Below, piece by piece: positions 30,162 to 45,917 of a stretch of DNA of 52,638 bases. Position numbers and translations under genes: made by a program. The notes under the pieces are model-generated. The model saw only the letters and a list, made by a program, of their open reading frames with translations. It ran no database searches and had not been told where the DNA came from. The DNA is from a virus (lineage: Duplodnaviria > Caudoviricetes), in the IMG/VR virus record IMGVR_UViG_3300033155_001652, positions 1-52,638 of that record; one strand, 5' to 3'. The stretch's first letter is position 1. The number at the start of each line of letters is the position of its first letter.

Positions 30162-30170
30162 AACCTCTCC

Positions 30171-31595
30171 TTACTCCTTGAAATCCGGCTTTATCAATTT
30201 ATCCAAATCGTACTTCTCACGGCAAATCTCATCGAAAGTCTTATAAGTCTTGGGTTTTACATTCTTAACAACATGCGAAGAAACCCTTGATGACCCATCC
30301 GTAAAACCAGTATCAATCCGCGAAGCCAATACATCCGCCAGACGATACATATGCGAAAGCACCGGATGACCTTCCTTCGGCTTTGGAAAAACCTTGTCCT
30401 TGATCGTCGAATAGTCAGCAACCAAAACCTGAGCCATCTTTCTCACAACCTCCGGCTTGTAAACCGAAACGGTCTGCGCCAGATTCTTAAAATCCTTACC
30501 AGTAGGCTGGAGCGGTATAGCCGCATTCGGATATGTCTTTAGTAACTCTTCGTTAAACATCTCGAAAGCTTCAATAGGAGTCGTCCCTCCCTTTGGTGTT
30601 ATCCTCTCCTTGCCTACCTTCTTATACCGACGAGAAGATTTCTCTGGCGATGATTTCTTTGAAACCTTCGGCTTTTTCTCGACATCGAACATAATCCGCT
30701 GATTACCATCTTCATCCTGGTCCTTGATAAAGGATTTCCGAAAAGGTAAATCTCTAGCCACCAAATCCGGTCGCAGGCATTCTTCTGTCTTTTCGGATTC
30801 TTCAAAAGGAAAATTTTTGTTTTCATCTCCGGCGAATGAGCGAAGCGAATTCGGCAAAAAAGAATTACGAAGTAATTCTTTTTCTCTTCTCTTTTCCTCT
30901 CTTATTAAATGTGCGGGCGCGTAGCAAGCATCGTTCCCGACTTCTGACACAGGTAATTCCTTGTCTGTAGAGGAGTCATTTGTTTCGTAGTCACTAAGAG
31001 GGACCGCCAGGTTTCTGGCGGGGGGTGCGCCAGGTTTCTGGCGGTTACTCTTTTGGGGGACCGCCAGGTTTCTGGCGGGGGGTGCGCCAGGTTTCTGGCG
31101 GGCATCTGTTTCTTTTTCACCGGAGGAATCTGATTTTTCCGGCAATTTTGATGGGACTTTTGCGATGATTTCGCCGGTATTTTTATCAGACCAGATGGCG
31201 ATGTTTACCTGATCACCATAGACAGCTTCAAGGTCATTAAGAAAGATGACAAGCTTATTGGGATTTTCGGTATCCTTTGCCCGAACCAATAGCTCCTTCT
31301 CTTCAAGCTCAACTAAAGTTTCTCTTACGGTACTTATCCCTCTTTTAAGGAATCGAGCCATTTCTTTTATGGTGGTGACGACACGGTTGGCTTTTTGGCT
31401 TCGAGCGAGGCAAACGACAAAGCCATAAACCCTTAACTGTCGGTCTGATATATTCGGGTCACACAACACACAATCGTGGATTTTTGTAAAATAACTGCGC
31501 CCGTTTTTAAGTTTTTTTGTGGGCGGATTTCGATAGAGAAGAATAAGATCGTTTGAAATAGCGGGTTTGAGAGAGTCGTGTCTTTGATATACCAT
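30171..31595 (-). CDS. Replication initiator protein (N-terminal wHTH)
   Basis: FTKIHD..ISDRQLRVY..TIKEMARFLKRGISTVRETLVELEEKELL; internal DNA iterons; directly upstream of loader and helicase. Confidence 0.75.
   Translation of the reverse strand: MVYQRHDSLKPAISNDLILLYRNPPTKKLKNGRSYFTKIHDCVLCDPNISDRQLRVYGFVVCLARSQKANRVVTTIKEMARFLKRGISTVRETLVELEEKELLVRAKDTENPNKLVIFLNDLEAVYGDQVNIAIWSDKNTGEIIAKVPSKLPEKSDSSGEKETDARQKPGAPPARNLAVPQKSNRQKPGAPPARNLAVPLSDYETNDSSTDKELPVSEVGNDACYAPAHLIREEKRREKELLRNSFLPNSLRSFAGDENKNFPFEESEKTEECLRPDLVARDLPFRKSFIKDQDEDGNQRIMFDVEKKPKVSKKSSPEKSSRRYKKVGKERITPKGGTTPIEAFEMFNEELLKTYPNAAIPLQPTGKDFKNLAQTVSVYKPEVVRKMAQVLVADYSTIKDKVFPKPKEGHPVLSHMYRLADVLASRIDTGFTDGSSRVSSHVVKNVKPKTYKTFDEICREKYDLDKLIKPDFKE
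31005..31100. repeat. Four 16-bp palindromic iterons (putative origin inside the initiator gene)
   Basis: cgccag-gttt-ctggcg at 31005, 31028, 31062, 31085 (spacings 23/34/23 bp). Confidence 0.8.
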
Positions 31596-31671: not shown

Positions 31672-31804
31672 GTCTTATTATTAAGGCTTCCTAAAAGTTG
31701 GAAATAAACGCTTTTGTCTTATTATTAAGGCTTGCTAAAGTTGTGGAAATAAACGCTTTTGTCTTATTATTAAGGCTTCCTAAAAGTTGGAAATAAACGC
31801 TTTT
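31672..31804. repeat. Tandem repeat, 3 x 44-45 bp
   Basis: gtcttattattaaggcttcctaaaagttggaaataaacgctttt at 31672, 31716 (variant) and 31761. Confidence 0.9.
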
Positions 31805-31863
31805 GTTAAGTATCCGCTGTGAGCTAAAGTTGTAAAGTATCTGCGGTGATACCTTTGATTCAT

Positions 31864-32531: not shown

Positions 32532-32552
32532 ATAAAGAGGCTTGTTTGAATA

Positions 32553-32968: not shown

Positions 32969-33358
32969 TTACACTTTTTCGGCGGCGAATATTTCACCCA
33001 TCAGTTTGCGGGTACCTTTGTTTATCTCGGCAATGACGACGCACTCGTCCCCCGAAAACAAAGCCACATCAGGATGAAACTCCTCAACAAAGAAGTTGAT
33101 AGTCAAGAGCCAATGGTTATACGTTGACTCCTGTAACTCTTTGTTCGTGCGCAAGATATCTAGCCATTCCAACATCTCCTCCATCTTTGGAATCTCGTGA
33201 GGATGAGTTTTCATCCTTCTCTTTACTGCCACCAATCGGCGGCTCCAGTTGTCAAGTTGCTTATGAATAATGCACTTCGGCGCATTAATCCTTTTGAACA
33301 CGGCGAGAAAATTCTTCCCGCTCAAATATGATCGGACCAATTCGAGTAAGTCTTTCAT
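32969..33358 (-). CDS. Hypothetical protein
   Basis: AAGGAG RBS, 129 aa. Confidence 0.65.
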   Translation of the reverse strand: MKDLLELVRSYLSGKNFLAVFKRINAPKCIIHKQLDNWSRRLVAVKRRMKTHPHEIPKMEEMLEWLDILRTNKELQESTYNHWLLTINFFVEEFHPDVALFSGDECVVIAEINKGTRKLMGEIFAAEKV

Positions 33359-33445
33359 TCTATTCTCCTTGTTTACATAACGACCTATGGTGATAGGTCT
33401 GGGGACAAAAAAATCCCACGCCGTAACATGGGATTTTCATTATCT

Positions 33446-33580
33446 CTACTCAATAAAATCTTCGTCTTTGCATCGAGCATCGACGATGCCCTTGAATTTG
33501 AAGGCATTAGGAGACGCCGACTCAAACATAAATTGTTGGGCCAATCTATTAAGTATTTTCTCTTTCTCCTGATCATTCAT
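33446..33580 (-). CDS. Small hypothetical protein (MNDQEKEK...)
   Basis: ATGA overlap with the stop of 33577..33807. Confidence 0.4.
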   Translation of the reverse strand: MNDQEKEKILNRLAQQFMFESASPNAFKFKGIVDARCKDEDFIE

Positions 33581-33807
33581 TCTTTTACCCATGCTTTCTT
33601 TAGATGGCTTGCTTTCTTTGCCTGCCTTGCTCTCTTTATCGGTCTTAATTGGTTCTCGCTGTTGTATTTTGCAAGAGCAGATTTCTCGGACCAATGGCCT
33701 GTCGTCTCCACTCTTGTCACAGCTAACCACCCGTGTTGATAACCTGCCGGAGCAACATAAACCCCCGGTACCCAATCAAAACTGGCGCATAAATTTGGAT
33801 AAGTCAT
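33577..33807 (-). CDS. Hypothetical early protein
   Basis: AAGGA RBS following a motif A hairpin. Confidence 0.6.
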   Translation of the reverse strand: MTYPNLCASFDWVPGVYVAPAGYQHGWLAVTRVETTGHWSEKSALAKYNSENQLRPIKRARQAKKASHLKKAWVKE

Positions 33808-33864
33808 TTTTATTTCCTTTCGTTAGAGTTAGTACATGCCAAAAAGCCCCGTTAGGGGCCATAG

Positions 33865-34314
33865 TCATGGCGTACCGCCGTTTCTTGCTAATCGGCTCAT
33901 TTCCACGCAGCGATCCATCGTATTACTGTCGAGTCCTCTTAGCGGCTCCTCGCTGTCCCAAGGGATCGGCAGAGTCGCAAACTCGTTCGCCCATAGGATA
34001 GCAATTGCCTTCCGGCTTAGGCCAGACACCGCCGACAATCCGCTGTGCCGGTGTGTCACGTTCCAAGGCCCACGATTCTCTCCCCAAGCGCGATGCACTG
34101 CAAAGTGGTCGCCCACTGGAATCGCCTCGACAATCTTTTCGTCGTCACTCGCCAACTTAAGCATGAAGCTCTTGCCGGAAGCGATGCGCTTCGCTTTACC
34201 CTCCGCGACCTTATCACGAAAGAACTTTTTCACGTATTCGACATCCCCATCATCTAATTTAGATAGGAGCTTTCCCATCGTAATATCAGTAATTGACACT
34301 GATTTGGTTGACAT
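33865..34314 (-). CDS. Hypothetical early protein
   Basis: Start MSTKSV after motif A RBS. Confidence 0.7.
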   Translation of the reverse strand: MSTKSVSITDITMGKLLSKLDDGDVEYVKKFFRDKVAEGKAKRIASGKSFMLKLASDDEKIVEAIPVGDHFAVHRAWGENRGPWNVTHRHSGLSAVSGLSRKAIAILWANEFATLPIPWDSEEPLRGLDSNTMDRCVEMSRLARNGGTP

Positions 34315-34374
34315 AATAATCTCCTTTGTTAATTGAATTACCATCGGCTAAAAGCCCCGGTCAAAGGGCTTCGT

Positions 34375-34659
34375 TCATTGCGCGTCGTCGTAGGCTAGTA
34401 GCTTCTCGCCAGGGTGGTCCTCCTTGCGAAAGCCCCGCACCGTGATCGGCTTTATGTGCCACGTATCCACGCCCCCTTCGGCTTGAATTCGCTTGCCGAA
34501 GCCGACCACGACTTCCGCACCGCAGCCGGGGCAGCGGTAGCGGTCGCCGCTGCTGTAGGCTGTCGGGTCGCAGCCCCCGTGGAACACGGGAAAGCCGTTA
34601 CGAGTGCAACGCATCTGAAGCCGACACTTAACACAAACTGGTCTATGCAACATTTCCAT
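34375..34659 (-). CDS. Zn-ribbon early protein (visibly GC-richer than neighbours)
   Basis: CVKC..CPGC; motif A RBS. Confidence 0.65.
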   Translation of the reverse strand: MEMLHRPVCVKCRLQMRCTRNGFPVFHGGCDPTAYSSGDRYRCPGCGAEVVVGFGKRIQAEGGVDTWHIKPITVRGFRKEDHPGEKLLAYDDAQ

Positions 34660-34708
34660 TCTCCTTTTTAAGTTTGAATTGCCATCGGCTTAAAGCCCCC
34701 GAAGGGGC

Positions 34709-34888
34709 TTAACCTCTCACAGTCTTCAAAATGTATTGAAGCCTTTTTTCAGTCTCCTCCATAACCGAAACCAATGCCAGATTAGTTTCAGGGTTTTGGT
34801 ATTTATCAAGCCATTCTCTTGTCTTGATACTGGCAAGCTTAATACATTGAAAAGCTTCTTCAGCTTCCGTTACCGCCTCAGATTTCAT
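34709..34888 (-). CDS. Small hypothetical early protein
   Basis: Start MKSEAV after AAGGAGG. Confidence 0.6.
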   Translation of the reverse strand: MKSEAVTEAEEAFQCIKLASIKTREWLDKYQNPETNLALVSVMEETEKRLQYILKTVRG

Positions 34889-34920
34889 AATTCCTCCTTG
34901 AAAAGCCCCCAAAGGGGCTT

Positions 34921-35262
34921 TCAGTCTATCTCTAGCTCAACACGCAGAATGCCAATACTAGCTCTGGTCCGATCAATTAATGCCATCATATCCTGAGCAT
35001 ATTTATTGCAGATTGTCGCGTATTCATAATCGACGGCGCAGTCGCCACTTTCAATCAATTCGCTCATTGCAATCAATATGTTATCGAACGTTTCAAGCTC
35101 GGCAACTTCTTGGCCTTTAGGGGTTGCCTCGTTACATAAAGTGCATCTGTTTGCGACCAAATTATTCATATCAAAAAACGCGGGTTGGTCCCCCGAAAGC
35201 TTAAAACTATCTTTCGGGAATAACGCGGGAAAAAGCTGGTTCTCACAAAGTATACATTTCAT
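34921..35262 (-). CDS. Zn-finger early protein
   Basis: MKCILC..CTLC; AAGGAG RBS downstream of motif B. Confidence 0.65.
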   Translation of the reverse strand: MKCILCENQLFPALFPKDSFKLSGDQPAFFDMNNLVANRCTLCNEATPKGQEVAELETFDNILIAMSELIESGDCAVDYEYATICNKYAQDMMALIDRTRASIGILRVELEID

Positions 35263-35288
35263 AATGATCTCCTTTTGGGTTGTATCCT

Positions 35289-35330
35289 TATAAAGTAAAA
35301 GCGATGATGGACCGAGAAAAACTTCTAAGA
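35289..35330 (-). promoter_or_regulatory. Promoter-like motif B (T-tract, GTCCATCATCG, TTTATA)
   Basis: cgatgatggac at 35302-35312; four copies in the window. Confidence 0.65.
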
Positions 35331-35370
35331 CCATTGATACCCCTACCTTGTGTTACCGCAAAAAGCCCCC

Positions 35371-35733
35371 TTAATGGGGGGCAATAGCGAACACGCCGCG
35401 CTCATTACATAAACAATACCGAGCATTCTGCGTTAATGCACGGCTCTTTTTTATAAAGAAATGAGAACCCCTGTAAGGGTTGTAAGAAATAGCTTCCAAA
35501 CAACCCTTACCAATGTTCGCAACAGTGCCGACAACGAACGCATGAACGTTCTTTCTGCGCTGTCTCAGAACCCGCTGACGCCCTTTCTCTGATACTTTGA
35601 AGGCGCAGTTCTTGAGACTAATCAAAGACGTATGGTCAACAACTAACCAACGCCCATCGACCTTCTTTTGAACTGAGTAAACGACTAGGCCAGGGCTGGA
35701 TCGAGTAAGATTTACATACACTCTTACCAACAT
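35371..35733 (-). CDS. Conserved phage hypothetical protein (VRVYxNL..RKNVHAFV..YNPY family)
   Basis: Motif pattern recalled from many phage proteins; function unknown to me. Confidence 0.7.
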   Translation of the reverse strand: MLVRVYVNLTRSSPGLVVYSVQKKVDGRWLVVDHTSLISLKNCAFKVSEKGRQRVLRQRRKNVHAFVVGTVANIGKGCLEAISYNPYRGSHFFIKKSRALTQNARYCLCNERGVFAIAPH

Positions 35734-35735
35734 AA

Positions 35736-35978
35736 TCAGTCCTTCTTAGTCATCATGAATTTGAGCAATTCACGCGCCTTTTGTTTAGCTCCATCCATTG
35801 AATTAGCTTTGCAGTCTCGTGTTACAGTGACCTGGACACCCCATTTACCAGTGGAATACTGGAAAACTCGAATATCAGTCCTTTCGTTAGAAGCAAACCT
35901 ATAACCTTTCACAGTCGGTATGGTACTCATGTCATCGCATTCTTGATCATGCAACGTTCCCCAACAGATATTTTTCAT
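35736..35978 (-). CDS. Hypothetical early protein
   Basis: Motif A RBS. Confidence 0.65.
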   Translation of the reverse strand: MKNICWGTLHDQECDDMSTIPTVKGYRFASNERTDIRVFQYSTGKWGVQVTVTRDCKANSMDGAKQKARELLKFMMTKKD

Positions 35979-36035
35979 AACAATCTCCTTTTAAGTTTGA
36001 ATTACCATCGCAGAAAAGCCCCCGAAGGGGCCAAT

Positions 36036-36398
36036 CTACTTGATCTTACTGAAGTTATCCTCCATCCAATAACCAATTTCACTGTCATTTTCAAAATACC
36101 CGACAATGCGAGGGCATTTCTTGTGTGTGAGAACAGTCCCCCACTTTTTCGGTCCCTTCATCTCAGGTCGATGGTAGGACGACCCTACCTTTTTATTAGG
36201 TACCTGAGCGACTCTTCTCGGTTTTGGATTATGCCAAATCTCGTAAAAATCCGGCGCAACCGCGTAAACCCTGAATCGACCGCTCGCGAGCCAAAGGCAA
36301 TCAGGGGGGGTCTCCTCCAGCTTCGCTTTTGGCTTCGCTTTTGGCTTCGCTTTTGGCTTCGCTTTTGGCTTCGCTTTTGGCTTCGCTTTAGTTGCCAT
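36036..36398 (-). CDS. Early protein with N-terminal (AKPK)n basic tail
   Basis: Start MATKAKPK after GAGGGG; tail encoded by a 12-bp tandem repeat. Confidence 0.65.
   Translation of the reverse strand: MATKAKPKAKPKAKPKAKPKAKPKAKLEETPPDCLWLASGRFRVYAVAPDFYEIWHNPKPRRVAQVPNKKVGSSYHRPEMKGPKKWGTVLTHKKCPRIVGYFENDSEIGYWMEDNFSKIK
36321..36389. repeat. 12-bp tandem repeat, ~5.75 copies
   Basis: cttcgcttttgg x5 plus cttcgcttt. Confidence 0.95.
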
Positions 36399-36939
36399 CT
36401 TTAGCCCCCTCAACCGCGCTCCAGGGCAGATTAACACTGATATTAGGAAGCTCTGGTATTACAAGCTCTCGGCGACTTCTAAAAGTCGAGTCGAGCAATT
36501 GATACCTCTTGCTATACTCAGTAAGTCGCTTCCCGTCTTCAGTCTTATCCCAGGCTTTGCCTTGGTTATGCGAATAAACAACGATGGACTCTAAGATACT
36601 CTTAACACAATCATCGTATGCTTCCATAGCCAAAGATAATTCGTCTTCGGCTACATAACTAGATTTGAGGAAGTGATCAAAATGCTTACTCGCACGTTCG
36701 ACAGCCCCCTCCGCAGATGCAAATTTCTCAAGCTCATCGTATAGGAACAGATTTTCAATAACTGGCAGCTTTTGATCAGACTCGGTCTCCAAATCTTTCA
36801 ATCGCTGACGAGCTTCAAGAACATCTTGTTTAAGTTGAACTAAAGAATTTGCAATCGTTGCCATATAGGAAGAAGAGCCTTCGATTGCTTCTGTAAGAGA
36901 AGCAATTTTTTGCTCTAACTTCTGATGTTCATTTGACAT
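36388..36939 (-). CDS. Coiled-coil hypothetical early protein
   Basis: AAGGAG RBS; heptad-rich N-terminus. Confidence 0.7.
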   Translation of the reverse strand: MSNEHQKLEQKIASLTEAIEGSSSYMATIANSLVQLKQDVLEARQRLKDLETESDQKLPVIENLFLYDELEKFASAEGAVERASKHFDHFLKSSYVAEDELSLAMEAYDDCVKSILESIVVYSHNQGKAWDKTEDGKRLTEYSKRYQLLDSTFRSRRELVIPELPNISVNLPWSAVEGAKDGN

Positions 36940-36985
36940 CAAAATTCTCCTTTCCTCAAAATGAGGATTTTGGTTTTCTCTACCC

Positions 36986-37084
36986 TTAAAAAGTAAAGTC
37001 GATGATGGACGTCCAAAAAACTTTGGGACTTCCTACACTCGTATAAAGAGAAAGCGATGATGGACCGAAAAAAAGTTTTAAGTC
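36986..37084 (-). promoter_or_regulatory. Two tandem copies of promoter-like motif B
   Basis: cgatgatggac at 37000-37010 and 37055-37065, with flanking A-tracts and taaag. Confidence 0.65.
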
Positions 37085-37100
37085 TTTTGTTTTTCAGGAC

Positions 37101-37604
37101 TTAAGAAATCTTGTTCGAGGTACCGTTTGAAGACGAAGGGGAGCTTTTGAGGGGATGGTTCTGTTGATCTTGAGCTAGAATTTTCAAGAGATGTAAACGA
37201 GTATTTTCCGTGTCCTCTCGACTCCTGGTTATCTCTACATCTTGAGAAGGTAAGTTTTGCTCGGCGACCTTGACTATTTCATAATGATGGCCGGAAGCTG
37301 GCTTCCAAGAAATTTCCTCAACGTCGAGATACGGCCCCCCCTCACCATTGGCGAGGAAGACGGCAAAATGTCTTTGTTCTTGTACTTCCCCATCATCAAT
37401 TTCTGTTTCTTTAACAAAAAAAGCTTCTTCCATAATGTCAATTATTTTAATACCTATTCCATAAACTAATCTTTTAATTCCGTTACCTGGACCTACAAAC
37501 CTACTTGTCCTTTTCACAGTAGGCTGTCTCTTAAGGGTTGTATTGGTTATAACAAACGGCACTGCCTCCCCTGCCTTAAGTTTTATCTTTTTTATTCCTG
37601 TCAT
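37101..37604 (-). CDS. Hypothetical protein
   Basis: Start MTGIKK after GGAGG. Confidence 0.6.
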   Translation of the reverse strand: MTGIKKIKLKAGEAVPFVITNTTLKRQPTVKRTSRFVGPGNGIKRLVYGIGIKIIDIMEEAFFVKETEIDDGEVQEQRHFAVFLANGEGGPYLDVEEISWKPASGHHYEIVKVAEQNLPSQDVEITRSREDTENTRLHLLKILAQDQQNHPLKSSPSSSNGTSNKIS

Positions 37605-37875
37605 TTGGACGCCTCCCCTTATCCTTAGTTTTCTTACGATACTGGGTATCGCATTGAATAACACCTTTTAACCCCATCATTTCAGTGTAATCATATTCAG
37701 GGCATACCTTAAAATGAACTTCGCCCTCTTTATCAACGAAGGCGCTTACACCAAGGGCCACGTCGTTAATTATTCGGACGAGTTTATGCAAGGCTGGTCG
37801 GCTGCAAAGCACCATACCGTTTTGTCTCGCCCAATTAATTACAAAAGCTTTTTTCTCTGATTCACTTAATGACAT
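37576..37875 (-). CDS. Hypothetical protein
   Basis: Start MSLSES after AGGAGG. Confidence 0.6.
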   Translation of the reverse strand: MSLSESEKKAFVINWARQNGMVLCSRPALHKLVRIINDVALGVSAFVDKEGEVHFKVCPEYDYTEMMGLKGVIQCDTQYRKKTKDKGRRPNDRNKKDKT

Positions 37876-37938
37876 AACGTAACCTCCTATGGTGTAGGAT
37901 ACCACGGCGAAAAAAAAGCCGCCGAAAAAAGAGCCGGA

Positions 37939-38286
37939 TCAGAACATCTCTGCACTGTCCGGCCCATTGTATCTCGTCTCAGGAGGCCACGGATACCTTT
38001 CATCCGCAAAGCTAAGGTCGCTATCCTCAACCTCATGGATATGAATCATGGCGTCTACACGTTCAAAGATCTTCCCGTCGCCTTTGTTGTGTAAGGCGCG
38101 AATCTCTGTTCGGAGCATTTTCCTGAAATAACCGTCAAATTCTGGTTCTTCTTCTGTCGGTGCAATGCCCATAGGCCACAATGGAATGCGACCAGCGAAG
38201 AAGTCCTTTTTTAACTGCTCTTTGTTGCCAGGGTACTCCCAGAGATACTCTCTGTAGCCGTACTCCTCGTCAACGTAAACTTTCAT
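37939..38286 (-). CDS. Hypothetical early protein
   Basis: Motif A RBS. Confidence 0.7.
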   Translation of the reverse strand: MKVYVDEEYGYREYLWEYPGNKEQLKKDFFAGRIPLWPMGIAPTEEEPEFDGYFRKMLRTEIRALHNKGDGKIFERVDAMIHIHEVEDSDLSFADERYPWPPETRYNGPDSAEMF

Positions 38287-38348
38287 AATAAACTCCTTTA
38301 TTGAATTTTAATTACCATCGCATTAAAGCCCCCGAAGGGGCTATTTAA

Positions 38349-38525
38349 TTAGGCTGGGGTCCAGCCAACATATGTAAATCGTCCACCGGAACCTTCAAGG
38401 CTCATAAGGGCGCTTGTCCCGGCGACCATTTCTTCAGTCTCGTAAACAATTGAGTATTTCTCTTCGCTCGGAAAATTTTCGTAGTGCAAACGAGCAGGAT
38501 AAACTGGATTTTTATCTGGGTTCAT
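38349..38525 (-). CDS. Small hypothetical early protein
   Basis: AAGGA RBS before MNPDK; bounded by motif A copies. Confidence 0.55.
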   Translation of the reverse strand: MNPDKNPVYPARLHYENFPSEEKYSIVYETEEMVAGTSALMSLEGSGGRFTYVGWTPA

Positions 38526-38603
38526 TATTGTTTCCTTCAATTAGGACAGCGCGGAATTGCACTCTCACACATCGCATTAAAGCCCCCAAAGGGGCTAAAT
38601 TGC

Positions 38604-38864
38604 TTAGATAAAAGGCAGGAATCGTTCCTCTGCTGATATCTTCTCGACAAACAACTTGCCGAGATTGACAGAAGCCTCATTGCGAAGATCTGAGCGACCT
38701 TCTGCAACTTGTTCAAGCCAGTTCACGCAAAGGCGCGTGAAGTTTTGCTGAAGCGTCCTATGGTCACGCGACATTTTTTCAATGAACACTTCTTTAGGTT
38801 CATCGTTCATGTTGTTAATAAATCTACTCATGGCCTCGGCCATTTCTTTTCCGTTTAAGGACAT
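38604..38864 (-). CDS. Conserved phage hypothetical protein (HRTLQQ..DxRNEAS..LPxI family)
   Basis: Motif A RBS; motif pattern recalled from phage early proteins. Confidence 0.7.
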   Translation of the reverse strand: MSLNGKEMAEAMSRFINNMNDEPKEVFIEKMSRDHRTLQQNFTRLCVNWLEQVAEGRSDLRNEASVNLGKLFVEKISAEERFLPFI

Positions 38865-38917
38865 AACAATCTCCTTTTAAGTTTGAGTTACCATCAGCTA
38901 AAAGCCCCCGAAAGGGC

Positions 38918-39355
38918 TTAATAGCTTGGACACGATCCGTCGATTGCTATGGTTATCAGGTCCATGCAAACCTTATTAACCACTCCCCAATCGATGTAAG
39001 CAGCAACGTCGTCATGGGCAGTCAATTCTGCCCATTGCGCAGTAGGAGCGTTGAAGTTTTGCCCACTTAAATAGCCCGTCCCTTCACACAAGGAAATTAT
39101 AGCCACTTCAACACGAGTGTAATGCTCTATTGACTTCAACATGTCCCTCGGAGTGCTATACATACTGGGGCCAGCGACGATGGAAATCTTAAACCTATCG
39201 CCGATAACAATCATCTTTTGCCATCCTCTATTATAAGAATGAAAAGTTACAGTTTCAGTAACAAAACGACCGAGCCTAAGCTCTTCAAGCCTTTGCTTAC
39301 GCTGGGCTTGCACGTCCTGTAAATCTTTAGCTGCGTCTCTTTTTATTAATGTCAT
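38918..39355 (-). CDS. Hypothetical early protein
   Basis: Motif A RBS; ISIVAGPSMYSTPR..YTRVEVA. Confidence 0.7.
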   Translation of the reverse strand: MTLIKRDAAKDLQDVQAQRKQRLEELRLGRFVTETVTFHSYNRGWQKMIVIGDRFKISIVAGPSMYSTPRDMLKSIEHYTRVEVAIISLCEGTGYLSGQNFNAPTAQWAELTAHDDVAAYIDWGVVNKVCMDLITIAIDGSCPSY

Positions 39356-39407
39356 AATAAACTCCTTTTTAAGTTTGAATTACCATCAGGTAAAAGCCCC
39401 GTAGGGC

Positions 39408-39602
39408 TTAAACGTCAATTGCCTCCCAATCAATAGAGCCGTCCCTATTGACAAGCCCTGACTCAATCAAATCACGGGCCGTCCTTCCATAATGGCCCTG
39501 TAAAGTCCACGCCATACCAGACTTAATAAGATCCCCAAATAATTGGACTGTCTCAACAGCATTCATTTCCCCTGCTTCGTACGACATTAATTTTGTAATC
39601 AT
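39408..39602 (-). CDS. Conserved small phage protein (YExGE..AWxLQGxYGR family)
   Basis: Motif A RBS; motif pattern recalled from phage proteins. Confidence 0.7.
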   Translation of the reverse strand: MITKLMSYEAGEMNAVETVQLFGDLIKSGMAWTLQGHYGRTARDLIESGLVNRDGSIDWEAIDV

Positions 39603-39654
39603 AACAATCTCCTTTTAGGTTTTAAGTAACATCGCCTTAAAGCCCCCTTGGGAG

Positions 39655-39867
39655 CTAGGCTAGAAGAACGATCTCCTGTCTTAACTCTTCAGGGGATGTC
39701 TTCGCGAAGGCTAAACCTTTCTCCTGTGTGAAGACATAAAGCCTAAGCTCGTCCTCAACCTCGAAAGAATCCATCTCGCTTATATAAAAAGAGCGACCAG
39801 GGAACGCCCTTAAACCAAAGGTCTCAGGGAACGTCTTAATAATCGCCGGAATGTCAAACTTTGCCAT
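39655..39867 (-). CDS. Hypothetical early protein
   Basis: GGAGG RBS. Confidence 0.65.
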   Translation of the reverse strand: MAKFDIPAIIKTFPETFGLRAFPGRSFYISEMDSFEVEDELRLYVFTQEKGLAFAKTSPEELRQEIVLLA

Positions 39868-39868
39868 T

Positions 39869-40159
39869 TCAATCCTCCATTAAATCCAAGTCATATGGTT
39901 CGACTTCAAAAATAGTTTCAACCCCGTAAGGCACTGCATCTGTCGGGTCATAATCGCCCACGATCCAGTACTTGACGCTACAAACAGAAACCCTTGATTC
40001 CTCGATTTGAAGTGCATCTGGGATACCTTCGCAGAGCTTATTAATGCTATTACTAGAGCCAATAACGTATGGCTGGCCCCGTAAACTAATAGGCCAAGTA
40101 CAAAGAACGAATTGATCGCCTTCGACTTTGGTACCTTTTGTTTTCGTCCTTGGTTGCAT
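39869..40159 (-). CDS. Hypothetical early protein
   Basis: Motif A with AAGGAGG RBS. Confidence 0.65.
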   Translation of the reverse strand: MQPRTKTKGTKVEGDQFVLCTWPISLRGQPYVIGSSNSINKLCEGIPDALQIEESRVSVCSVKYWIVGDYDPTDAVPYGVETIFEVEPYDLDLMED

Positions 40160-40212
40160 AGCAACCTCCTTGTTTGAATTGAATTACCATCTCCGAAAAG
40201 CCCCGCAGGGCT

Positions 40213-40557
40213 TTAAGGTCTTTGTTTACCTGGGGGATAGCATAACAACGAGAATGCTGTCACACGATCAATCCGCAGGTTTGTCTCCCCTGCTGATCTT
40301 CCGTCTGCTCGCATCAAATCCCTCAACAGGATCGTCGTGTTCTTTGCCTTCGACAATTTTTTGCCGACGATAAAACCGATATGGGTATCGTCATCGACAC
40401 CCGGTACCTCGACATAGTCAAGGCCAGGACGTCTAGTCGATGGGTCCAAGCGTTCATAACGTACGGCAACGATAGGTCGAAACCCATCGTCCAACTTTTC
40501 AAGGGCATCTTGAAATCTTGCCTTCTCGGTTGGACTTATTTTCTTATGGAATATCAT
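40213..40557 (-). CDS. Hypothetical early protein (first gene of the early block)
   Basis: GAGGAG RBS downstream of motif B. Confidence 0.7.
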   Translation of the reverse strand: MIFHKKISPTEKARFQDALEKLDDGFRPIVAVRYERLDPSTRRPGLDYVEVPGVDDDTHIGFIVGKKLSKAKNTTILLRDLMRADGRSAGETNLRIDRVTAFSLLCYPPGKQRP

Positions 40558-40575
40558 CTGGTCTCCTCTCTAAAG

Positions 40576-40619
40576 GTATAAAGAGAAGTCGATGATGGAC
40601 CTAAAAAAAGTTTTAAGTC
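40576..40619 (-). promoter_or_regulatory. Promoter-like motif B at the head of the early block
   Basis: gtataaagagaagtcgatgatggacctaaaaaaagttttaagtc, nearly identical to 37041-37084. Confidence 0.7.
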
Positions 40620-40795
40620 TAATGAAAATAAGGGTTTATGATCTTGAGGATTTTGGGGTCTGAAAGGTTACGCAAAGGTTACGGAGTCTCGTACCCTTCC
40701 CCTGCAACCCTTCAAAAACCTTCCTTCTCCATAGGTCGTAACTTCGTTACCATTGCGTACCTATGACGCGGGAAGCTCTCGGAAGATAGGTACAC

Positions 40796-40832
40796 AAAAA
40801 CAGACCCTCATGAGGTTGGGTTCATGAGAGCC
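40796..40832 (-). terminator. Intrinsic terminator ending the structural block
   Basis: ctcatga/tcatgag stem followed by TTTTT on the minus strand, downstream of the 40896 stop. Confidence 0.6.
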
Positions 40833-40895
40833 TATTCGGACGAGGATAAATTTTGAACGGCGCAGTCGTCTATGGTGTTGCGGTCACGTCAGGAA

Positions 40896-41405
40896 TCAAT
40901 AAGCGCCTTGACGTTTGAGATTGGAGTTAGCAGCAACAACATTATGGTTAGACGATGTTTCTACCGAAAGGAACGCAACACAAGCGGTGCCGTCGATAAC
41001 AACAGTCGCTGCTCCGGCGCTTATTGCATTACCAAACAGTTGAATGCGATAGGTACCTTTATTCAAACGATACATGCGTCTGCAATTCGCTTGAACAGGT
41101 GCTGACGCTGCGGCAAAAAGAACAGCATTACGATAAATAACGTCGTTTGTGTAATTAGTCGCGCCAGTTGCGTCGATAGTTAAATCTGGAACAGCCGCTC
41201 CAAGATCATCTGTAAGAGCTAAAGCAAGTTGAACTACTGCGTTAGCAACACCACCAAGAAGACCACCTTGAAATTTTGCTTCAACATACATATTGTCTTC
41301 AAGGACGTCAAATTTGAAGCCAAGGTCATCGGCGTCAACCAAAACGGGGCTAGCCCCAACAGTGAGGTTACCCGAATCAACGGTTAATCTTTGTTCGTTA
41401 TACAT
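40896..41405 (-). CDS. Probable virion structural protein
   Basis: Ala/Val/Thr/Asn-rich beta protein; GGAG RBS. Confidence 0.6.
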   Translation of the reverse strand: MYNEQRLTVDSGNLTVGASPVLVDADDLGFKFDVLEDNMYVEAKFQGGLLGGVANAVVQLALALTDDLGAAVPDLTIDATGATNYTNDVIYRNAVLFAAASAPVQANCRRMYRLNKGTYRIQLFGNAISAGAATVVIDGTACVAFLSVETSSNHNVVAANSNLKRQGAY

Positions 41406-41481
41406 TTCTTATTCTCCAAAACTCGTGCAAAACCTAGACTTTTAGCCCTAACCAACCAAGGTCAGGGCTTCATTATGGTGA

Positions 41482-42075
41482 TTATGAATTGAGCGCGTAA
41501 TCACTTGCGTGGCGACCAGTATCATAAAGTGTTGAAATAATATTGTTGGGTGCTGCTGGCGCAATTGCGCCACCAGGAACGCGGAAAGTCAACCGAATTT
41601 GTTGGTTAGCTCCAATAGGGAGGTTAGCCAGCAACGCGCCAATAGCAGTTGTGGCAGCAGGAGTCGGGCCTACGATTCCTGTGGCGTCACTAAAAAGAAC
41701 TTCAGGTTCACCAACACCTGTAGCTCCGGTCGGGAAGAGAGCGCCGGGGGTTGGGCCAACAGCCGCAACACCAATGACGTTTGTTCCCTGATTTGATCCG
41801 CCGAAGTTTGGCGAATTAGGAGCAAAACCTTCGGCCATCCGAACAATCGCAACTTCTGTTAAGAACGCAGCATTCGTCCAAAGTAAACTAGGAATAGAAA
41901 CGATAGCTTTACCGGCACGAAATTCGTCGCGGCTTGCTGGCTCAATAACATGGTCTTTGTTATTGTTCAGAGCAGGCACGAGTGTCTGTGGTCGCGCAAG
42001 CGTCACAACCGTTGAAGCTGTCGCTGCTAAAGTCAAACCATTAGTAAGTTCTACAAATTGTCCTCTGTCTATCAT
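41482..42075 (-). CDS. Probable virion structural protein
   Basis: Ala/Thr/Gly/Pro-rich, 197 aa; followed by an AGCCCT..AGGGCT hairpin. Confidence 0.6.
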   Translation of the reverse strand: MIDRGQFVELTNGLTLAATASTVVTLARPQTLVPALNNNKDHVIEPASRDEFRAGKAIVSIPSLLWTNAAFLTEVAIVRMAEGFAPNSPNFGGSNQGTNVIGVAAVGPTPGALFPTGATGVGEPEVLFSDATGIVGPTPAATTAIGALLANLPIGANQQIRLTFRVPGGAIAPAAPNNIISTLYDTGRHASDYALNS

Positions 42076-42266
42076 CGTCCTTAACCTCGCGTTCGAGTGA
42101 TCTGCGTTTTTGTCGCAGTCGTTCTTCTAAGTATAACACACCCGGTAAGGGCGCAAACAATTCTTTCGTTACCTTCTTATATTATAGGTAACCTGTCAAG
42201 TTTGATTCTTATTCATCCTACATTATAAAGTTATTACATTCTATTATTTATTTCTTAAAACCCAAG

Positions 42267-43019
42267 TCACCTATCGCTTTCAAGTCCGAACATTAGTCCT
42301 TGAGCCATACGCTGTTGGGCCATCTGGCAATAATCCTGCGATATATCGATTCCAACAAAATCCCGATGTAGCCTCCGCGCTGCTACAGCGGTTGTTCCAG
42401 AACCCATGAACGGGTCTAAAACAGTTCTGGCTGTGGTGGACGAGATAACCCGCTCGATAAGAGCTACAGGGAAAGGGGCGGGGTGCTTGTTATCTCGTTC
42501 TTGCCCAAATTCCCAGACATCGCCACAAGCATTTGCTTTCTTCGCTAGCTTAAACTTTGGCTTTGCAATCAAATAGATGACCTCATAGGTGGGCAGGAAA
42601 TATCCGGGGTTGAAATTTATCCCCCCTTTTCTTCTCCAAATGATGATTTGCCTTACAGGGAAACCGGAGACAATATCATTTCTATCTTGCAATAGCCCCG
42701 CTTGCACCCGCCACTTATGATTATAAAATATCGCCCCGTGGTCAGGTATTATCCTCATCATCTCTGTGAGACAAGCTCGTTGCCAAGCCACATATTCGTC
42801 GTGAGGCATATTGTCATCGTAATGCGAATAGCCCTTTATCAGAGCGGCGTTAGCCCACTTGCCTCCCCGACCGTCTTTCATCCCATTACCAGTCGAATTT
42901 TTAAGATTGTAGGGCGGCGAAGTAACTATTAACTCTACGGCACCATCTGGTATCTGTTTCATTACGCCGACGGTATCCCCGCAAATAAACTGATTATTAA
43001 AATCGTCCGGGTAAATCAT
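42267..43019 (-). CDS. DNA methyltransferase, N4-cytosine/N6-adenine beta group
   Basis: LIVTSPPYN (motif IV), HPAPFP, VLDPFMGSGTT (motif I), GIDIS. Confidence 0.92.
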   Translation of the reverse strand: MIYPDDFNNQFICGDTVGVMKQIPDGAVELIVTSPPYNLKNSTGNGMKDGRGGKWANAALIKGYSHYDDNMPHDEYVAWQRACLTEMMRIIPDHGAIFYNHKWRVQAGLLQDRNDIVSGFPVRQIIIWRRKGGINFNPGYFLPTYEVIYLIAKPKFKLAKKANACGDVWEFGQERDNKHPAPFPVALIERVISSTTARTVLDPFMGSGTTAVAARRLHRDFVGIDISQDYCQMAQQRMAQGLMFGLESDR

Positions 43020-43025
43020 GCCGTT

Positions 43026-43098
43026 TCACCTATCGCCTTCAGGTCCGATTTGATGGTTTCGGTGTGGGATCAACCCACCGACCTCGCGCCTGATTCAT
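43026..43098 (-). pseudogene. Internally deleted copy of the 10620..10853 HTH gene
   Basis: 43026-43061 matches 10627-10662 and 43062-43095 matches 10811-10844; joined at a gtttcg microhomology. Confidence 0.8.
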
Positions 43099-43107
43099 GA
43101 TTAAACC

Positions 43108-43151
43108 TACTTTTCTATATTACCAAAGGTACTTTTCTATATTACCAAAGG
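43108..43151. repeat. 22-bp perfect tandem duplication
   Basis: tacttttctatattaccaaagg x2, spanning the stop of 43137..43640. Confidence 0.9.
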
Positions 43152-43640
43152 CATGATTTGACCGTGAGTGACCACATTCACATAAGTATGGGGAGTATAA
43201 TCAACCTCGCTCGTAAACGTAGGAGATAAAGCCCCGATTAAAGTGGCTACCGTCTGAGTAATAACAGGCGATAACGACAAATTCGTGACGGCTACTGTAC
43301 TCGTAAAAGCCGGTGATAATGCCGAAGTTGACGTTGCTACCGTCTGAGTAATCACAGGTGATAACGATAAATTCGTAACGGCTACCGTCTGCGTAATAAC
43401 CGGCGATAACGATAAATTCGTAACGGCTACCGTACTCGTAAAAGCCGGTGACAATGACGGCGTTGTGATCGCTACCGTCTGAGTAATAACAGGCGAAAGA
43501 GAAAGTTTTATAATCGCAGTAGTTTGAGTAATAACCGGCGATAACGACAAATTCGTTGCCGCTACCGTACTCGTAAAAGCCGGTGATAACGCCGAAGTTG
43601 TTGCCGCTACTGTACTGGTAAAAGCCGGTGATAACGCCAT
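43137..43640 (-). CDS. Thr/Ser-rich 15-aa tandem-repeat protein
   Basis: About 10 repeats of LSP(AFTST/VITQT)VAxTxxx; 45-bp DNA period. Confidence 0.65.
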   Translation of the reverse strand: MALSPAFTSTVAATTSALSPAFTSTVAATNLSLSPVITQTTAIIKLSLSPVITQTVAITTPSLSPAFTSTVAVTNLSLSPVITQTVAVTNLSLSPVITQTVATSTSALSPAFTSTVAVTNLSLSPVITQTVATLIGALSPTFTSEVDYTPHTYVNVVTHGQIMPLVI

Positions 43641-43643
43641 GTT

Positions 43644-43814
43644 TTATTTCCAACGACCTTCTTTTATCGCTCTCTTCTTTGTCTCCTCGATGATGTCAAG
43701 GATATCTTGAGGCAACCCAGGAGGTGTGTAGTCCTTATGTACCTTGTCGTGCTTGGACTGGACGAGATCCGCTGGTTTTCTAGGTGGAATCATGGGGTTT
43801 TTGTATTTAGCCAT
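43644..43814 (-). CDS. Small hypothetical protein (56 aa, not in ORF track)
   Basis: MAKYKNPMIPPRKPADLVQSKHDKVHKDYTPPGLPQDILDIIEETKKRAIKEGRWK; exactly fills the gap between neighbours. Confidence 0.55.
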   Translation of the reverse strand: MAKYKNPMIPPRKPADLVQSKHDKVHKDYTPPGLPQDILDIIEETKKRAIKEGRWK

Positions 43815-43817
43815 AGT

Positions 43818-45917
43818 TTATATAACCTTAAAACACCTTCTTATGACCTGACCGCTTGTCAGTGAATCCGTTGCTACATCATGATTAACGAGAACAACCG
43901 ATCCATCAGCCGGAACACCCGTCATATCACCAACCGAGATTGTATAAGGCTGTCCACCAGGATTTGATATCGTTGATTTTGTTGATATCAACTCGTCGTT
44001 GGGAAGCCCATGATAGAGAGATATCGTAGCTGTTCCGCCACCATAACATCTCAGAGATATCAACTCTTTGTTGATCGCAGGAGTGACGCCGACAATGATT
44101 GCGTTCTTATCACCCTTGCGGAATTCGCGGCCACCACCACCAAGAGATTCATCTGCTATGGATAGCGACCCAAAACCACTGGTCCCGACATGCGTAGGGC
44201 CGACAAGTTTTCGGCAAGGGCCGCTTGTGGGAGTAGTCGGGAACGAGCTTGCAGCATAAGTCCCTGCTCGCTGAAGAATCACCCTGTTTGGGGTTGTCGC
44301 TGTGCCTCTGAACTTAAAGATTCTCTCGTCAGAAGTTAAGCCTATATAGTCCTGTTTGTCAACTAAACCAGCAAGAGTAGGATCAGCGCCCCCGACAGTG
44401 TTGAAGTAAAATCTTTCTTCACTACCAAGAGCAGCCGCAGTAGTCCAATCAATTTGAAAAGCTGTTATAGCAACCCATGGATCGCCCCATTCCATTACTT
44501 CAACTGTTGGTGAGCCAGATCCAGCAGTGCCTGCATCTGGCATGGCATAGATTAGCATCTTGTCCTGACCGCTTGGGCTATTTGCCGTTTGGTCGCGAAT
44601 ACACCTCAGTCGGGGGTAAGTCCCTAGACTCCCCCCAACATTCACTTTTAGGTCGGATACCGGCCAGAATACTTGACATAAGCGTTCACCACGATCCACA
44701 TTGGTATAGCTCCCACCGGAAAATGAACGCTGATTATCACAGCTAATAACGCCAGCTTTCTCAGTGAATGTAAATATCCACCAGCCAGTACTGCCAGTCC
44801 TTATCCAACCAGCAATAGCAACCCAGAGCTTCCCTCCTTGCTCGAATATCATATTTCCAGCGTTTACTGCCGTGTTCCAGTCTGGATAAAGCGCCACGGA
44901 CCACCCATCAAATCGACAACCTGACACCTGACCCCAGGCACCACCTGTCAATTCACTGAGTTGACTATCCTCCCCATTGGAGTTGTTCATGAACATGAAT
45001 ATGCGGCTCTTCCATTCGCAGCAGGTGTATGCGCCACAATGTTCATTCCAAATGTGGTTACACATATTTACGCCAACTTGAATACCGTATGCTTGGGTTG
45101 TCGGGTTAAAGCTAACGGTGCAATAACTGGTATTCGACGTTTCATGACTACAGGCAACATATATCGTGTCATTGATAACCGTAGATCTTCCCCAAAGATC
45201 AGACCTTGAGGAGTTAAAGGTTCCAATAAGCGCCTCGGTCCAAACCCCTGTTTCTATATCCAGATCAACCCCGTAGACATTGGTATTTGAAGCATGGTGA
45301 TACATGCACCCAATGCCCATCTTGTCGTTGATAGTCATCGAGTGAAGCCCTGAAGTGGGAATTGGCCGACCACTCACTGAGCTTGTGTGAACAACCTTCC
45401 ATTCTCCGAGTTCTGCCGCTGCCCCGCCTTGAAACGCCGCTTCTGTTGTTGTCGCTGCTCCTGTTCCTGATCCTGATGCAATCGTAATAACTTCGCCAGA
45501 ACCGATTGCTGTCCCTGTGGTGAATTTCAAGACAATAAAAGTATCTGTCGCAACCCCAGCCTCAATGAATGTGCCGGTTGCACCTCCGCTTGCTGTCCAA
45601 GTATCCCCGGCAGCAAAACCGTGAAATCCTGCTTGAGTCGTTGTGTAGCTCCCGACATTGCATTTATAGGCAAGCGGGTCAAATTCATAAAACCTATAGG
45701 GCAGAAGCACTCCTGGCAGTGATGAGGAGCAATGAACCGCATAGGCTTTGCCTCCTACCTGACAAGCTCTGTTTTCGCCGTTGAGAGCCGAACCAACAGA
45801 AGCAGCAATCGGAGTTTCACGATGGAAATTCCCACCGATCTGGCTTATGGTAAGAACATCGACACCATAGCAGGCCACGGTGGTATCTCTGTAGTCCATC
45901 ATTAAATACTGAGTCAT
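43818..45917 (-). CDS. Putative tail/receptor-binding protein, paralog 2
   Basis: Start MTQYL 45917 (ATGA overlap); Gly/Thr/Trp-rich, beta-propeller-like; colinear with 45914..48001. Confidence 0.6.
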   Translation of the reverse strand: MTQYLMMDYRDTTVACYGVDVLTISQIGGNFHRETPIAASVGSALNGENRACQVGGKAYAVHCSSSLPGVLLPYRFYEFDPLAYKCNVGSYTTTQAGFHGFAAGDTWTASGGATGTFIEAGVATDTFIVLKFTTGTAIGSGEVITIASGSGTGAATTTEAAFQGGAAAELGEWKVVHTSSVSGRPIPTSGLHSMTINDKMGIGCMYHHASNTNVYGVDLDIETGVWTEALIGTFNSSRSDLWGRSTVINDTIYVACSHETSNTSYCTVSFNPTTQAYGIQVGVNMCNHIWNEHCGAYTCCEWKSRIFMFMNNSNGEDSQLSELTGGAWGQVSGCRFDGWSVALYPDWNTAVNAGNMIFEQGGKLWVAIAGWIRTGSTGWWIFTFTEKAGVISCDNQRSFSGGSYTNVDRGERLCQVFWPVSDLKVNVGGSLGTYPRLRCIRDQTANSPSGQDKMLIYAMPDAGTAGSGSPTVEVMEWGDPWVAITAFQIDWTTAAALGSEERFYFNTVGGADPTLAGLVDKQDYIGLTSDERIFKFRGTATTPNRVILQRAGTYAASSFPTTPTSGPCRKLVGPTHVGTSGFGSLSIADESLGGGGREFRKGDKNAIIVGVTPAINKELISLRCYGGGTATISLYHGLPNDELISTKSTISNPGGQPYTISVGDMTGVPADGSVVLVNHDVATDSLTSGQVIRRCFKVI

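Follow-up and report, generated by a model that had tools for sequence, protein, structure and literature searches.

The array and its repeated element

The subject of this analysis is an array of small phage genes in which a single composite element, made up of a hairpin, a conserved box at a fixed distance behind it, a leader, a Shine-Dalgarno (SD) sequence and a start codon, recurs between genes that are unrelated to one another. The array lies in the window, by which we mean the whole linear 52,638-base IMG/VR record IMGVR_UViG_3300033155_001652 of an uncultured phage. CheckV estimates the completeness of the window at 19%; if that estimate holds, the whole phage genome would measure roughly 250–300 kb. 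The minus strand carries nearly all window genes. The array is a region of small genes without assigned function, situated upstream of replication genes, with a methyltransferase gene and two large paralogous genes on one flank and a replication module on the other. Strand reading and scanning revealed 12 hairpins of one family, all on the minus strand between 33,850 and 40,204, in which GGGGCTTT starts at positions 40204, 39646, 39400, 38908, 38586, 38332, 36022, 35369, 34909, 34699, 34358 and 33850. Eight of the 12 are followed by the full box, GATG[GT][TC]A[AC][TC], then an A/T-rich leader, an AGGAG-type SD sequence and ATG, which gives a composite element of about 61 nt whose box ends 20–22 nt before the ATG. 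A preliminary description of this DNA had counted 12 minus-strand hairpins and about eight full boxes, and both counts stand. The unit begins further upstream than the range that it gave for the array, at a repeat of another type (type B, 40,577–40,657).

The hairpins are bound closely to the gene junctions. Of 20 junctions in the array, six are overlaps or gaps of at most 2 nt, and a family hairpin occupies 12 of the 14 larger gaps; every intergenic gap of 32–108 nt has one, and genes that have no hairpin before them are translationally coupled. In 12/12 copies the hairpin either overlaps the stop codon of the gene before it or is no more than 8 nt away, which agrees with the earlier observation that the hairpin abuts or overlaps the stop. 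The junction after gene 38286–37939 holds a different, T-rich inverted repeat without the box before the next gene (37905–37938, minus strand).

Pattern searches with the 25-nt box (at most three mismatches) gave three matches against 0.00 expected, and with the hairpin pattern seven against 0.00. The core, defined as hairpin, TTT, a spacer of five nucleotides (N5) and GATG, gave nine matches against a mean of 0.01 in 200 shuffles, and a control read backwards gave none. A covariance model built from 18 copies and run on the window with filters off returned 11 matches at E ≤ 0.01, all on the minus strand at 33,805–40,216 and three of them outside the training set, with no copy at that threshold elsewhere in the 52,638-base record.

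Anatomy of the element

The first full element below the array head (40157–40216; 62.4 bits) displays the loop TGCG, TTT, N5, the GATGGTAAT box, leader, SD sequence and ATG, and like all copies described here it lies on the minus strand; it is followed by the coupled genes 40159–39869 and 39867–39655. The second (39600–39660; 66.8 bits) has the box variant GATGTTACT and one U-G stem pair and precedes gene 39602–39408, which encodes a DUF7417 protein, and the third (39353–39412; 65.2 bits) has the loop TACG and precedes gene 39355–38918. The fourth (38862–38922; 72.5 bits), with loop TTCG and box GATGGTAAC, stands before gene 38864–38604, after which comes a core-only copy (38569–38596; 28.8 bits over model positions 5–32) in which hairpin, TTT, N5 and GATG are joined to a different leader before gene 38525–38349. 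The fifth full element (38284–38346; 72.8 bits), again with loop TTCG, precedes gene 38286–37939, and the sixth (35976–36036; 75.9 bits), which is nearest to the consensus, precedes the coupled genes 35978–35736 and 35733–35371, the latter of the Phage_L5_gp82 family. Two incomplete copies follow: a hairpin without GATG (35365–35382), whose 6-nt loop holds the upstream stop codon and which has T5 and then a type B repeat, and a hairpin without the box (34886–34923; 20.1 bits), with SD sequence and ATG directly after it, before gene 34888–34709. The seventh full element (34651–34713; 66.0 bits) has the box GATGGCAAT and precedes the GC-rich gene 34653–34375, and the eighth (34312–34374; 68.9 bits) has a 6-nt loop and precedes gene 34314–33865. 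The last copy (33805–33864) is degenerate, with loop TAAC, T5 and a box one base short before gene 33807–33577; it was recovered by the covariance model from outside the training set with 29.8 bits and E 8.5e-6.

The same element occurs on a second fragment, the 34,675-base record G001 (estimated 12% complete), where 14 cores form two clusters of opposite orientation, five on the plus strand at 785–1763 and nine on the minus strand at 28,494–30,909. All core copies in the window and in both G001 clusters share the orientation of their genes. An alignment of 18 copies shows GGGGCTTT, GATG and the A, T and AA of the box to be invariant and the distance from box to SD sequence to be variable. The preliminary description needs amending as to the distance from GGGGCTTT to GATG, which is exactly 5 nt wherever both occur, that is, in nine of the 12 window hairpins, and the N5 spacer, variable in sequence, keeps this length in 23/23 cores (nine in the window and 14 in G001).

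The core is also found before other downstream parts, namely an alternative leader, stretches without SD-led open reading frames (ORFs) and type B repeats. The alternative leader is common to window 38586 and G001 29911 and stands before unrelated genes. Three stretches of 122–216 nt after a core have no SD-led ORF, and their longest complete ORF is 34 aa; the fold z-scores of these apparently non-coding stretches (−1.04, −1.23 and −2.40) are not clearly better than those of shuffles, and a structured RNA is not demonstrated by them. At G001 ~28640–28761 (L034 11640–11761, minus strand), after a core element, there is a likeness to the T-arm and acceptor end of a transfer RNA (tRNA) or transfer-messenger RNA (tmRNA), which matches tmRNA model positions 347–363 with E 7e-4; ARAGORN does not predict a gene at this place, where the fold z-score is −1.23. 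Because the core is kept while the downstream parts differ, the hairpin and the GATG in fixed phase are the unit, with the ribosome-binding site (RBS) part exchangeable. Upstream halves (loop and N5) and downstream halves (box and leader) reassort among copies. The ATG within GATG was considered as a coding start and rejected, as it opens a mini-ORF of 5–6 codons whose peptide is not conserved.

Hairpin structure and the level at which it may act

The 12 window hairpins have a stem of the type (A)AGCCCC/GGGGCT(T) with about 6–8 pairs, folding energies of −9.1 to −13.4 kcal/mol and a run of 3–5 T after the stem. Their loops are TGCG, CAAG, TACG, TTCG (four copies), TTTG (two copies), TAAC, CATTAA and TTGACC, and six of the 12 (TTCG, TACG or TGCG) are of the UNCG type. 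The loop thus varies while the stem is kept, as had been noticed before. In a model-fitted alignment of 31 copies, 96.4% of stem cells are paired; two-sided pair changes number zero, and the 11 one-sided changes are all C-to-U or A-to-G and give a G-U wobble. Such wobbles pair only on the sense strand; together with the frequent UNCG-type loops, these changes favour a hairpin working as sense-strand RNA, which falls short of proof of selection on structure.

This bears on the idea that the hairpin is a promoter of the phage N4 kind, extruded in DNA and recognised as a structure. A conserved stem with a variable loop would suit such a promoter, as would the lack of a sigma-70 consensus on the elements. 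The promoters of the N4 virion RNA polymerase, however, have a 3-nt hairpin loop and the loops here measure 4–6 nt in 12/12 copies; the G-U pairs and the UNCG-type loops, a feature of RNA stability, belong to RNA, and the U-run after the stem and the position on the upstream stop codon resemble a terminator. No giant virion polymerase gene was seen in this incomplete genome either, and an N4-like promoter is hardly credible here.

Cargo genes

The genes between the elements have little in common. Among 23 small ORFs examined, two have a family match, to DUF7417 (phrog_3908) and Phage_L5_gp82 (phrog_586), and no paralogous pair occurs among the cargo proteins. Since no two of them are related, the repeat is not a by-product of gene duplication. 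Composition also differs: gene 34375–34653 on the minus strand has a GC content of 61.3% and 71% at third codon positions against 44.6% for the window, and gene 33865–34314 has 52.4%. The earlier view of the cargo as unrelated and of unequal GC content is therefore borne out. Four homologues of the GC-rich gene 34375–34653, at 66–74% identity, are present among metagenome proteins, with none in cultured phages or IMG/VR, and a tblastn search with the two GC-rich cargo proteins gave no match. Two genome-contig matches to the GC-rich cargo family, weak and partial (46% and 32% identity over parts of the query), were not used. In the cargo gene 36398–36036, six tandem 12-nt units (36308–36401) encode an N-terminal (KPKA)n run.

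Unrelated cargo is one of the points that make it improbable that the element has no dedicated function and is merely a terminator and RBS copied along by repeated illegitimate or homologous duplication, so that its likeness would reflect shared ancestry. Adjacent copies do sometimes share their N5 (window 38586/38332, G001 30607/30358 and G001 1524/1763), and the 3′ arm of the stem is invariant with no covariation, both of which passive copying would produce. N5, loops and leaders have nevertheless diverged freely, yet not one spacer indel occurs in 23/23 cores, and the element persists in three separate clusters and in two orientations, each time in line with the direction of its genes.

Other upstream motifs and putative transcription signals

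Two other conserved motif classes sit upstream of genes in this phage at similar distances from starts, which suggests that they are class-specific promoters. The type B repeat combines a T-run with an invariant TCCATCATCG and with a TATA-rich hexamer that lies 17–24 nt before the ATG. On the minus strand of the window, one copy (40577–40657) heads the array, 17 nt before the ATG of gene 40557–40213, with 94% identity over 81 nt to G001 31341–31421; two tandem copies at 36977–37106 (37032–37106 and 36977–37024) restart the array before gene 36939–36388, and a further copy (35279–35353) follows the hairpin at 35382 and precedes gene 35262–34921. Besides G001 31341–31421, type B copies lie at G001 30828–30890 and at about 122–223 on another contig, L037. 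Type B is probably another promoter class, heading the array and restarting it at 37,0xx and 35,3xx. The third motif, (G)GCGGTATAAC, is often followed by N3-ATAG and stands 15–36 nt ahead of where replication-module genes start (window minus strand near 32533, 27152, 23947, 20273 and 15659; G001 27937), and it may represent the middle or late promoters. The presence of three such class-specific motifs upstream of genes in a single phage resembles a set of temporal promoter classes, and this is the main reason to read the box of the hairpin element (type A) as a putative promoter.

A sigma-70 scan of 33,000–41,500 found nine sites against 12.2 expected and none on any element, in keeping with the earlier statement that no sigma-70 promoter precedes the RBS, and no sigma-70 match was found for any of the three upstream motif classes. 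Sigma-70 readings of the box made by eye, as an extended −10 or with a −35 in the T-run, were rejected because the last −10 position lacks a T and the spacings are unsuitable. Inspection of the 18-copy alignment revealed no arrangement of a Mot box with a −10.

Relatives and possible cassette exchange

Relatives were sought by pattern scans of IMG/VR and of metagenome contigs, which yielded very few true carriers. The true element was present in one of 17 stretches from the viral scan (L008) and the core in five of 36 from the metagenome scan (L053, L058, L060, L063 and L066), the others being chance matches; L079, from a further scan, is likewise a chance match, in an unrelated GC-rich phage. 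The main carrier, G001, has a twin, L037, which is 99% identical. Its two clusters flank a T4-type head and tail module comprising Gp23 capsid, Portal_T4, prohead protease S77, sheath, tube and baseplate hub. A tblastx comparison of G001 with the window gave no shared protein, and the repeats are their only shared DNA. The shared repeats, a GC content of 45.3%, a tetranucleotide profile that correlates with that of the window at r = 0.96, and contigs from three runs holding the window that also read into G001-type flanks together make it probable that G001 belongs to the same genome as the window or to a sister genome. The T4-type portal gene of G001 (L033; 2260–5211) carries an intein splicing domain and an HNH endonuclease domain in its N-terminal part, and at L034 10981–11067 (plus strand) a match to the gyrA RNA motif reaches 38.5 bits, short of the gathering score of 45, with E 2.3e-7 in a search of 4 kb.

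The preliminary description had proposed that the repeats offer points for cassette gain, loss and shuffling, and had suggested scanning related phages with a covariance model for different cargo between the same repeats. Copies were found only in the array when the window was scanned, and different cargo between repeats was found in one uncertain case, a cassette-precise replacement between G001 and L063, a 1,236-nt metagenome contig; L066, which is the same phage as window 39,169–42,431 at 97.6% identity, has the same gene order as the window array. L063 and G001 share a single block of 389 nt at 92% identity with unrelated sequence on both flanks. Homology extends from one hairpin to the GATG of the element that follows and stops immediately behind that GATG. 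N5 differs at four of five positions in the left element and at one of five in the right, so the exchanged unit looks like [GATG-leader-gene-hairpin-N5]. Because exact repeats between elements are only about 20–25 nt long, an assembly chimera at an assumed final k of 55 seems unlikely.

A unit with such ends recalls an integron-like, site-specific system in which a recombinase or nuclease would cut at or next to GATG and move [GATG-leader-gene-hairpin-N5] units. The right breakpoint falls exactly after GATG and N5 travels with the upstream gene, the halves of the element reassort around GATG, and all copies have the orientation of their genes. When the ORFs of the 52.6-kb window and of the 34.7-kb G001, both of which are incomplete genomes, were scanned with PHROGs and Pfam, neither an integrase nor any other site-specific recombinase emerged; this is in line with the earlier remark that no integrase was in view. 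The short tetraloop hairpins are not attC-like imperfect palindromes, and homologous recombination at the longest invariant stretch, for which the phage has genes, would give the same breakpoints. With a single case to draw on, a dedicated site-specific system is very improbable.

The contig loose ends that were traced, at 39373, 39408, 40577, 40657 and 37042, read into repeat copies of the G001 and L037 type and are not array variants. One contig of another run (X4), at a depth of 2.8, passes from 35802 to 33339 with 30 other letters between and could be a variant lacking six genes; it was set aside because this lone contig of low depth has its breakpoints within genes.

Genomic setting

The replication module 3′ of the array encodes DnaD-like and DnaC-like loaders, a DnaB-like helicase, a primase and CobS/CobT-like ATPases, and the same downstream module holds a family A DNA polymerase, a helicase and a ribonucleotide reductase. 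The recombination genes of this module encode two Holliday-junction resolvases, an exonuclease and a RecA/UvsX-like recombinase. On the upstream side of the array come a gene for a DNA methyltransferase and two paralogous genes whose products measure about 700 aa; the paralogues are adjacent (43818–45917 and 45914–48001), 46% identical to each other and without a Pfam or PHROG family match, and an Atlas look-up of the 699-aa upstream protein gave weak Kelch or beta-propeller leads only and no polymerase.

The phage has no close cultured relative among the records searched. A megablast search of the array against 50,697 cultured phage records gave no match, a tblastn search with the family A polymerase gave at most 25% identity among the cultured-phage records listed, and a search of viral contigs for loci related through the 474-aa and 705-aa proteins gave no relative. 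No tRNA was found, and no Rfam family reached its gathering score.

Repeats of other kinds lie elsewhere in the window. Short direct repeats with 22–45-nt units rich in CGCCAGGTTTCTGGCGG palindromes lie inside the DnaD-like gene (31000–31101), and three 45-nt direct repeat units lie just upstream of it (31672–31806); both sets look like iterons, and a replication origin may be located there. A 45-nt unit in eight tandem copies (43155–43649) encodes 15-aa repeats within ORF 43137–43640. Stretches of 39–40 nt are repeated 32 kb apart at 92–95% identity (10805–10844 with 43056–43095, and 10624–10662 with 43023–43061).

Interpretation of the element

We favour, with moderate confidence, the view that the element is a compact expression cassette resembling the promoter-early stem-loops (PeSLs) of T4-like phages, in which an attenuator hairpin, a restart signal other than sigma-70 and an RBS would be combined in a module that also serves as a recombination handle. 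This view as a whole, held at that same moderate level, includes the identity of the carrier, which would be an uncultured marine myovirus, and of the array, which would be a hyperplastic region of small early genes. The hairpin on or just after the upstream stop codon would act as an intrinsic terminator or attenuator and, in addition, shield the preceding message at its 3′ end. The following GGGGCTTT-N5-GATG(G/T)TA(A/C)TT(C/A)AA would be a class-specific restart signal, most likely a promoter for phage-redirected or phage-encoded machinery rather than for the unmodified sigma-70 holoenzyme, and an A/T-rich leader of variable length, a strong SD sequence and ATG would complete the element. 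Serial hairpins without a restart would starve distal genes, which was counted in favour of a restart signal. As 23 invariant cores lie in direct orientation within the clusters of two fragments, they could be substrates for homologous recombination by the phage's own enzymes, and cassettes would be swapped, acquired or dropped together with their expression signals, as in PeSLs. The build of the element, its restriction to the array, its recurrence on G001, the rigid spacing, the unrelated and compositionally uneven cargo and the one replacement are observed; termination, promoter activity and the recombination mechanism are what we infer.

Several results weigh against this view of a PeSL-like cassette. 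The stem shows no covariation among the 31 copies because its 3′ arm is invariant, and the earlier claim that its structure is under selection is accordingly not demonstrable by that route. A G+C-rich hairpin is present in 12/12 copies, and the terminator rule of five T in eight is passed by one of the 12, so termination at the short T-runs may be weak and transcription reading through from type B could express the array with no promoter inside it. The box is unlike any promoter consensus tried, and no gene for a sigma factor, activator or RNA polymerase is visible in the window or G001, which represent about 19% and 12% of their genomes. The rigid spacing could equally be the G(−10)/Y(−1)/G(+1) geometry of pausing or termination, and the TA(A/C)TT of the box could meet the preference of an RNase E-like enzyme, which would make it a processing site. 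The evidence for shuffling is one case, the L063 contig, at ~1.4x coverage. The differences of L066 from the window are three 25-nt gaps resembling assembly artefacts, which together with its unchanged gene order indicate no cassette variation in the window's own array. Contigs from four other runs (X2–X5) likewise gave no joints in the array, and contigs drop rare variants; bins lacking cover in the low-depth runs are uninformative.

Much of this evidence fits attenuation combined with RNA processing and no internal promoter, which is the main rival, if in our judgement an unlikely one. Transcription would start at the type B repeats (40,6xx; 37,0xx; 35,3xx) and read through weak hairpins, and the A/U-rich box after each hairpin would be an endonuclease site, giving monocistronic mRNAs with hairpin-protected 3′ ends and with the standard leader and SD sequence at their 5′ ends. 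Short T-runs that mostly fail the terminator scan, a type B repeat that heads the array and others that restart it twice, UNCG-type loops and G-U-only changes that point to an RNA-level hairpin, a conserved TA(A/C)TT that may suit RNase E, and a box without promoter consensus would all be expected of such an arrangement. It leaves unexplained, however, why an invariant GATG stands at a fixed 5 nt from the U-run and why the core persists at sites where another leader or type B stands in place of the A/U-rich part, and six to seven serial attenuators between type B sites would produce a steep expression gradient.

A tighter coupling can be imagined, which we regard as doubtful. The element would then be a fused machine in which GGGGCTTT, the 3′ arm and U-run of the hairpin, forms the upstream half of a compact promoter and GATG(G/T)TA(A/C)TT its downstream half at 5 nt, used by a phage-encoded or reprogrammed polymerase, so that every stop would make the next start. 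GATG would be the preferred crossover, moving [leader-gene-hairpin] units, including small non-coding RNAs, between phages as cassettes sufficient in themselves.

Comparison with known systems

Genes that are small and unrelated, point in one direction and are each bounded by a hairpin-forming repeat, together with composition outliers that suggest independent acquisition, recall integron arrays, an analogy that the preliminary description had drawn. It fails on the structure of the repeat: attC sites are long imperfect palindromes with extrahelical bases, whereas the stems here have 5–8 mostly perfect pairs, with mostly 4-nt loops and a U-run. No intI was found in the window or G001, and each unit here has its own RBS and probably its own transcription signals.

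In phage T4, intercistronic C(UUCG)G hairpins, and in phage T7, hairpins of the processed early transcript, define and stabilise mRNA 3′ ends. These systems resemble the array in having stable tetraloop hairpins between early genes. They differ in that no box is coupled to the hairpin at a fixed spacing, and the stems here are too short for RNase III.

The start-associated sequences (SAS) of cluster K mycobacteriophages are described as a 13-nt motif that contains the SD sequence and lies 3–7 nt from the start, with extended repeats (ESAS) of 17 nt that the authors judged to be protein-binding sites and not RNA hairpins (PMC3203893). As far as that account describes them, they share with the present element the repetition of asymmetric motifs upstream of non-structural gene starts, in one orientation and before unrelated genes, and an upstream inverted repeat in part of the copies. 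The box here instead ends 20–22 nt before the ATG and the hairpin resembles an RNA terminator; the SAS consensus had 0 matches in the present sequence at up to two mismatches.

In the published accounts, a PeSL has a stem-loop immediately before an early promoter and an SD sequence and start codon at the 3′ end; PeSLs are conserved over ~100 bp and dense in hyperplastic ORFan regions (PMC2839356, PMC4122927). According to the same accounts, the stem-loop is a terminator or attenuator, reporter assays served to test promoter and terminator activity, neighbouring PeSLs recombine to give deletions, replacements and mini-circles, and a Mot-box variant is known as PmSL, the middle-promoter form (PMC2839356, PMC4122927). 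A terminator-like hairpin before almost every gene, which had seemed paradoxical in the preliminary description, is exactly how the reporter-tested PeSLs are built, with the terminator directly before the restart signal and RBS; the analogy with PeSLs, also drawn there, holds in layout and genomic setting. In the literature found, PeSLs are reported only from cultured T4-like phages of enterobacteria and vibrios, and no description of the present motif was found there, its sequence not having been searched as text.

The present element differs from PeSLs in its length (~61 nt against ~100 bp), in having neither a sigma-70-like −35/−10 pair nor a recognisable Mot box with a −10, and in its hairpin, which is fixed in sequence and position where the stem-loops of PeSLs, as far as described, take five positions relative to the promoter. 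The carrier too departs from T4-like phages, as the window has a RecA/UvsX-like recombinase yet a family A polymerase with DnaB, DnaC and DnaG-type proteins. The likeness is nonetheless close. Both are composite intergenic stem-loops followed by a transcription signal (putative here), SD sequence and ATG, in eight full copies in the present array; both are dense in ORFan regions between conserved modules and scarce in the core modules; breakpoints of replacements between relatives fall within the elements, here in the one uncertain, low-coverage case of L063 and G001; and the carrier has T4-type head genes (on G001) and recombination genes of its own. If the proposed reading is true, ORFans would move together with their own terminator, promoter and RBS, and the PeSL principle, in which expression signals double as recombination handles, would extend to an uncultured marine lineage with a non-sigma-70 signal. 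An element that is short, sharply defined and highly repeated is a practical handle for finding the hyperplastic regions of this lineage in metagenomes, for defining the promoter specificity of this phage, and for counting cassette exchange directly in long-read viromes.

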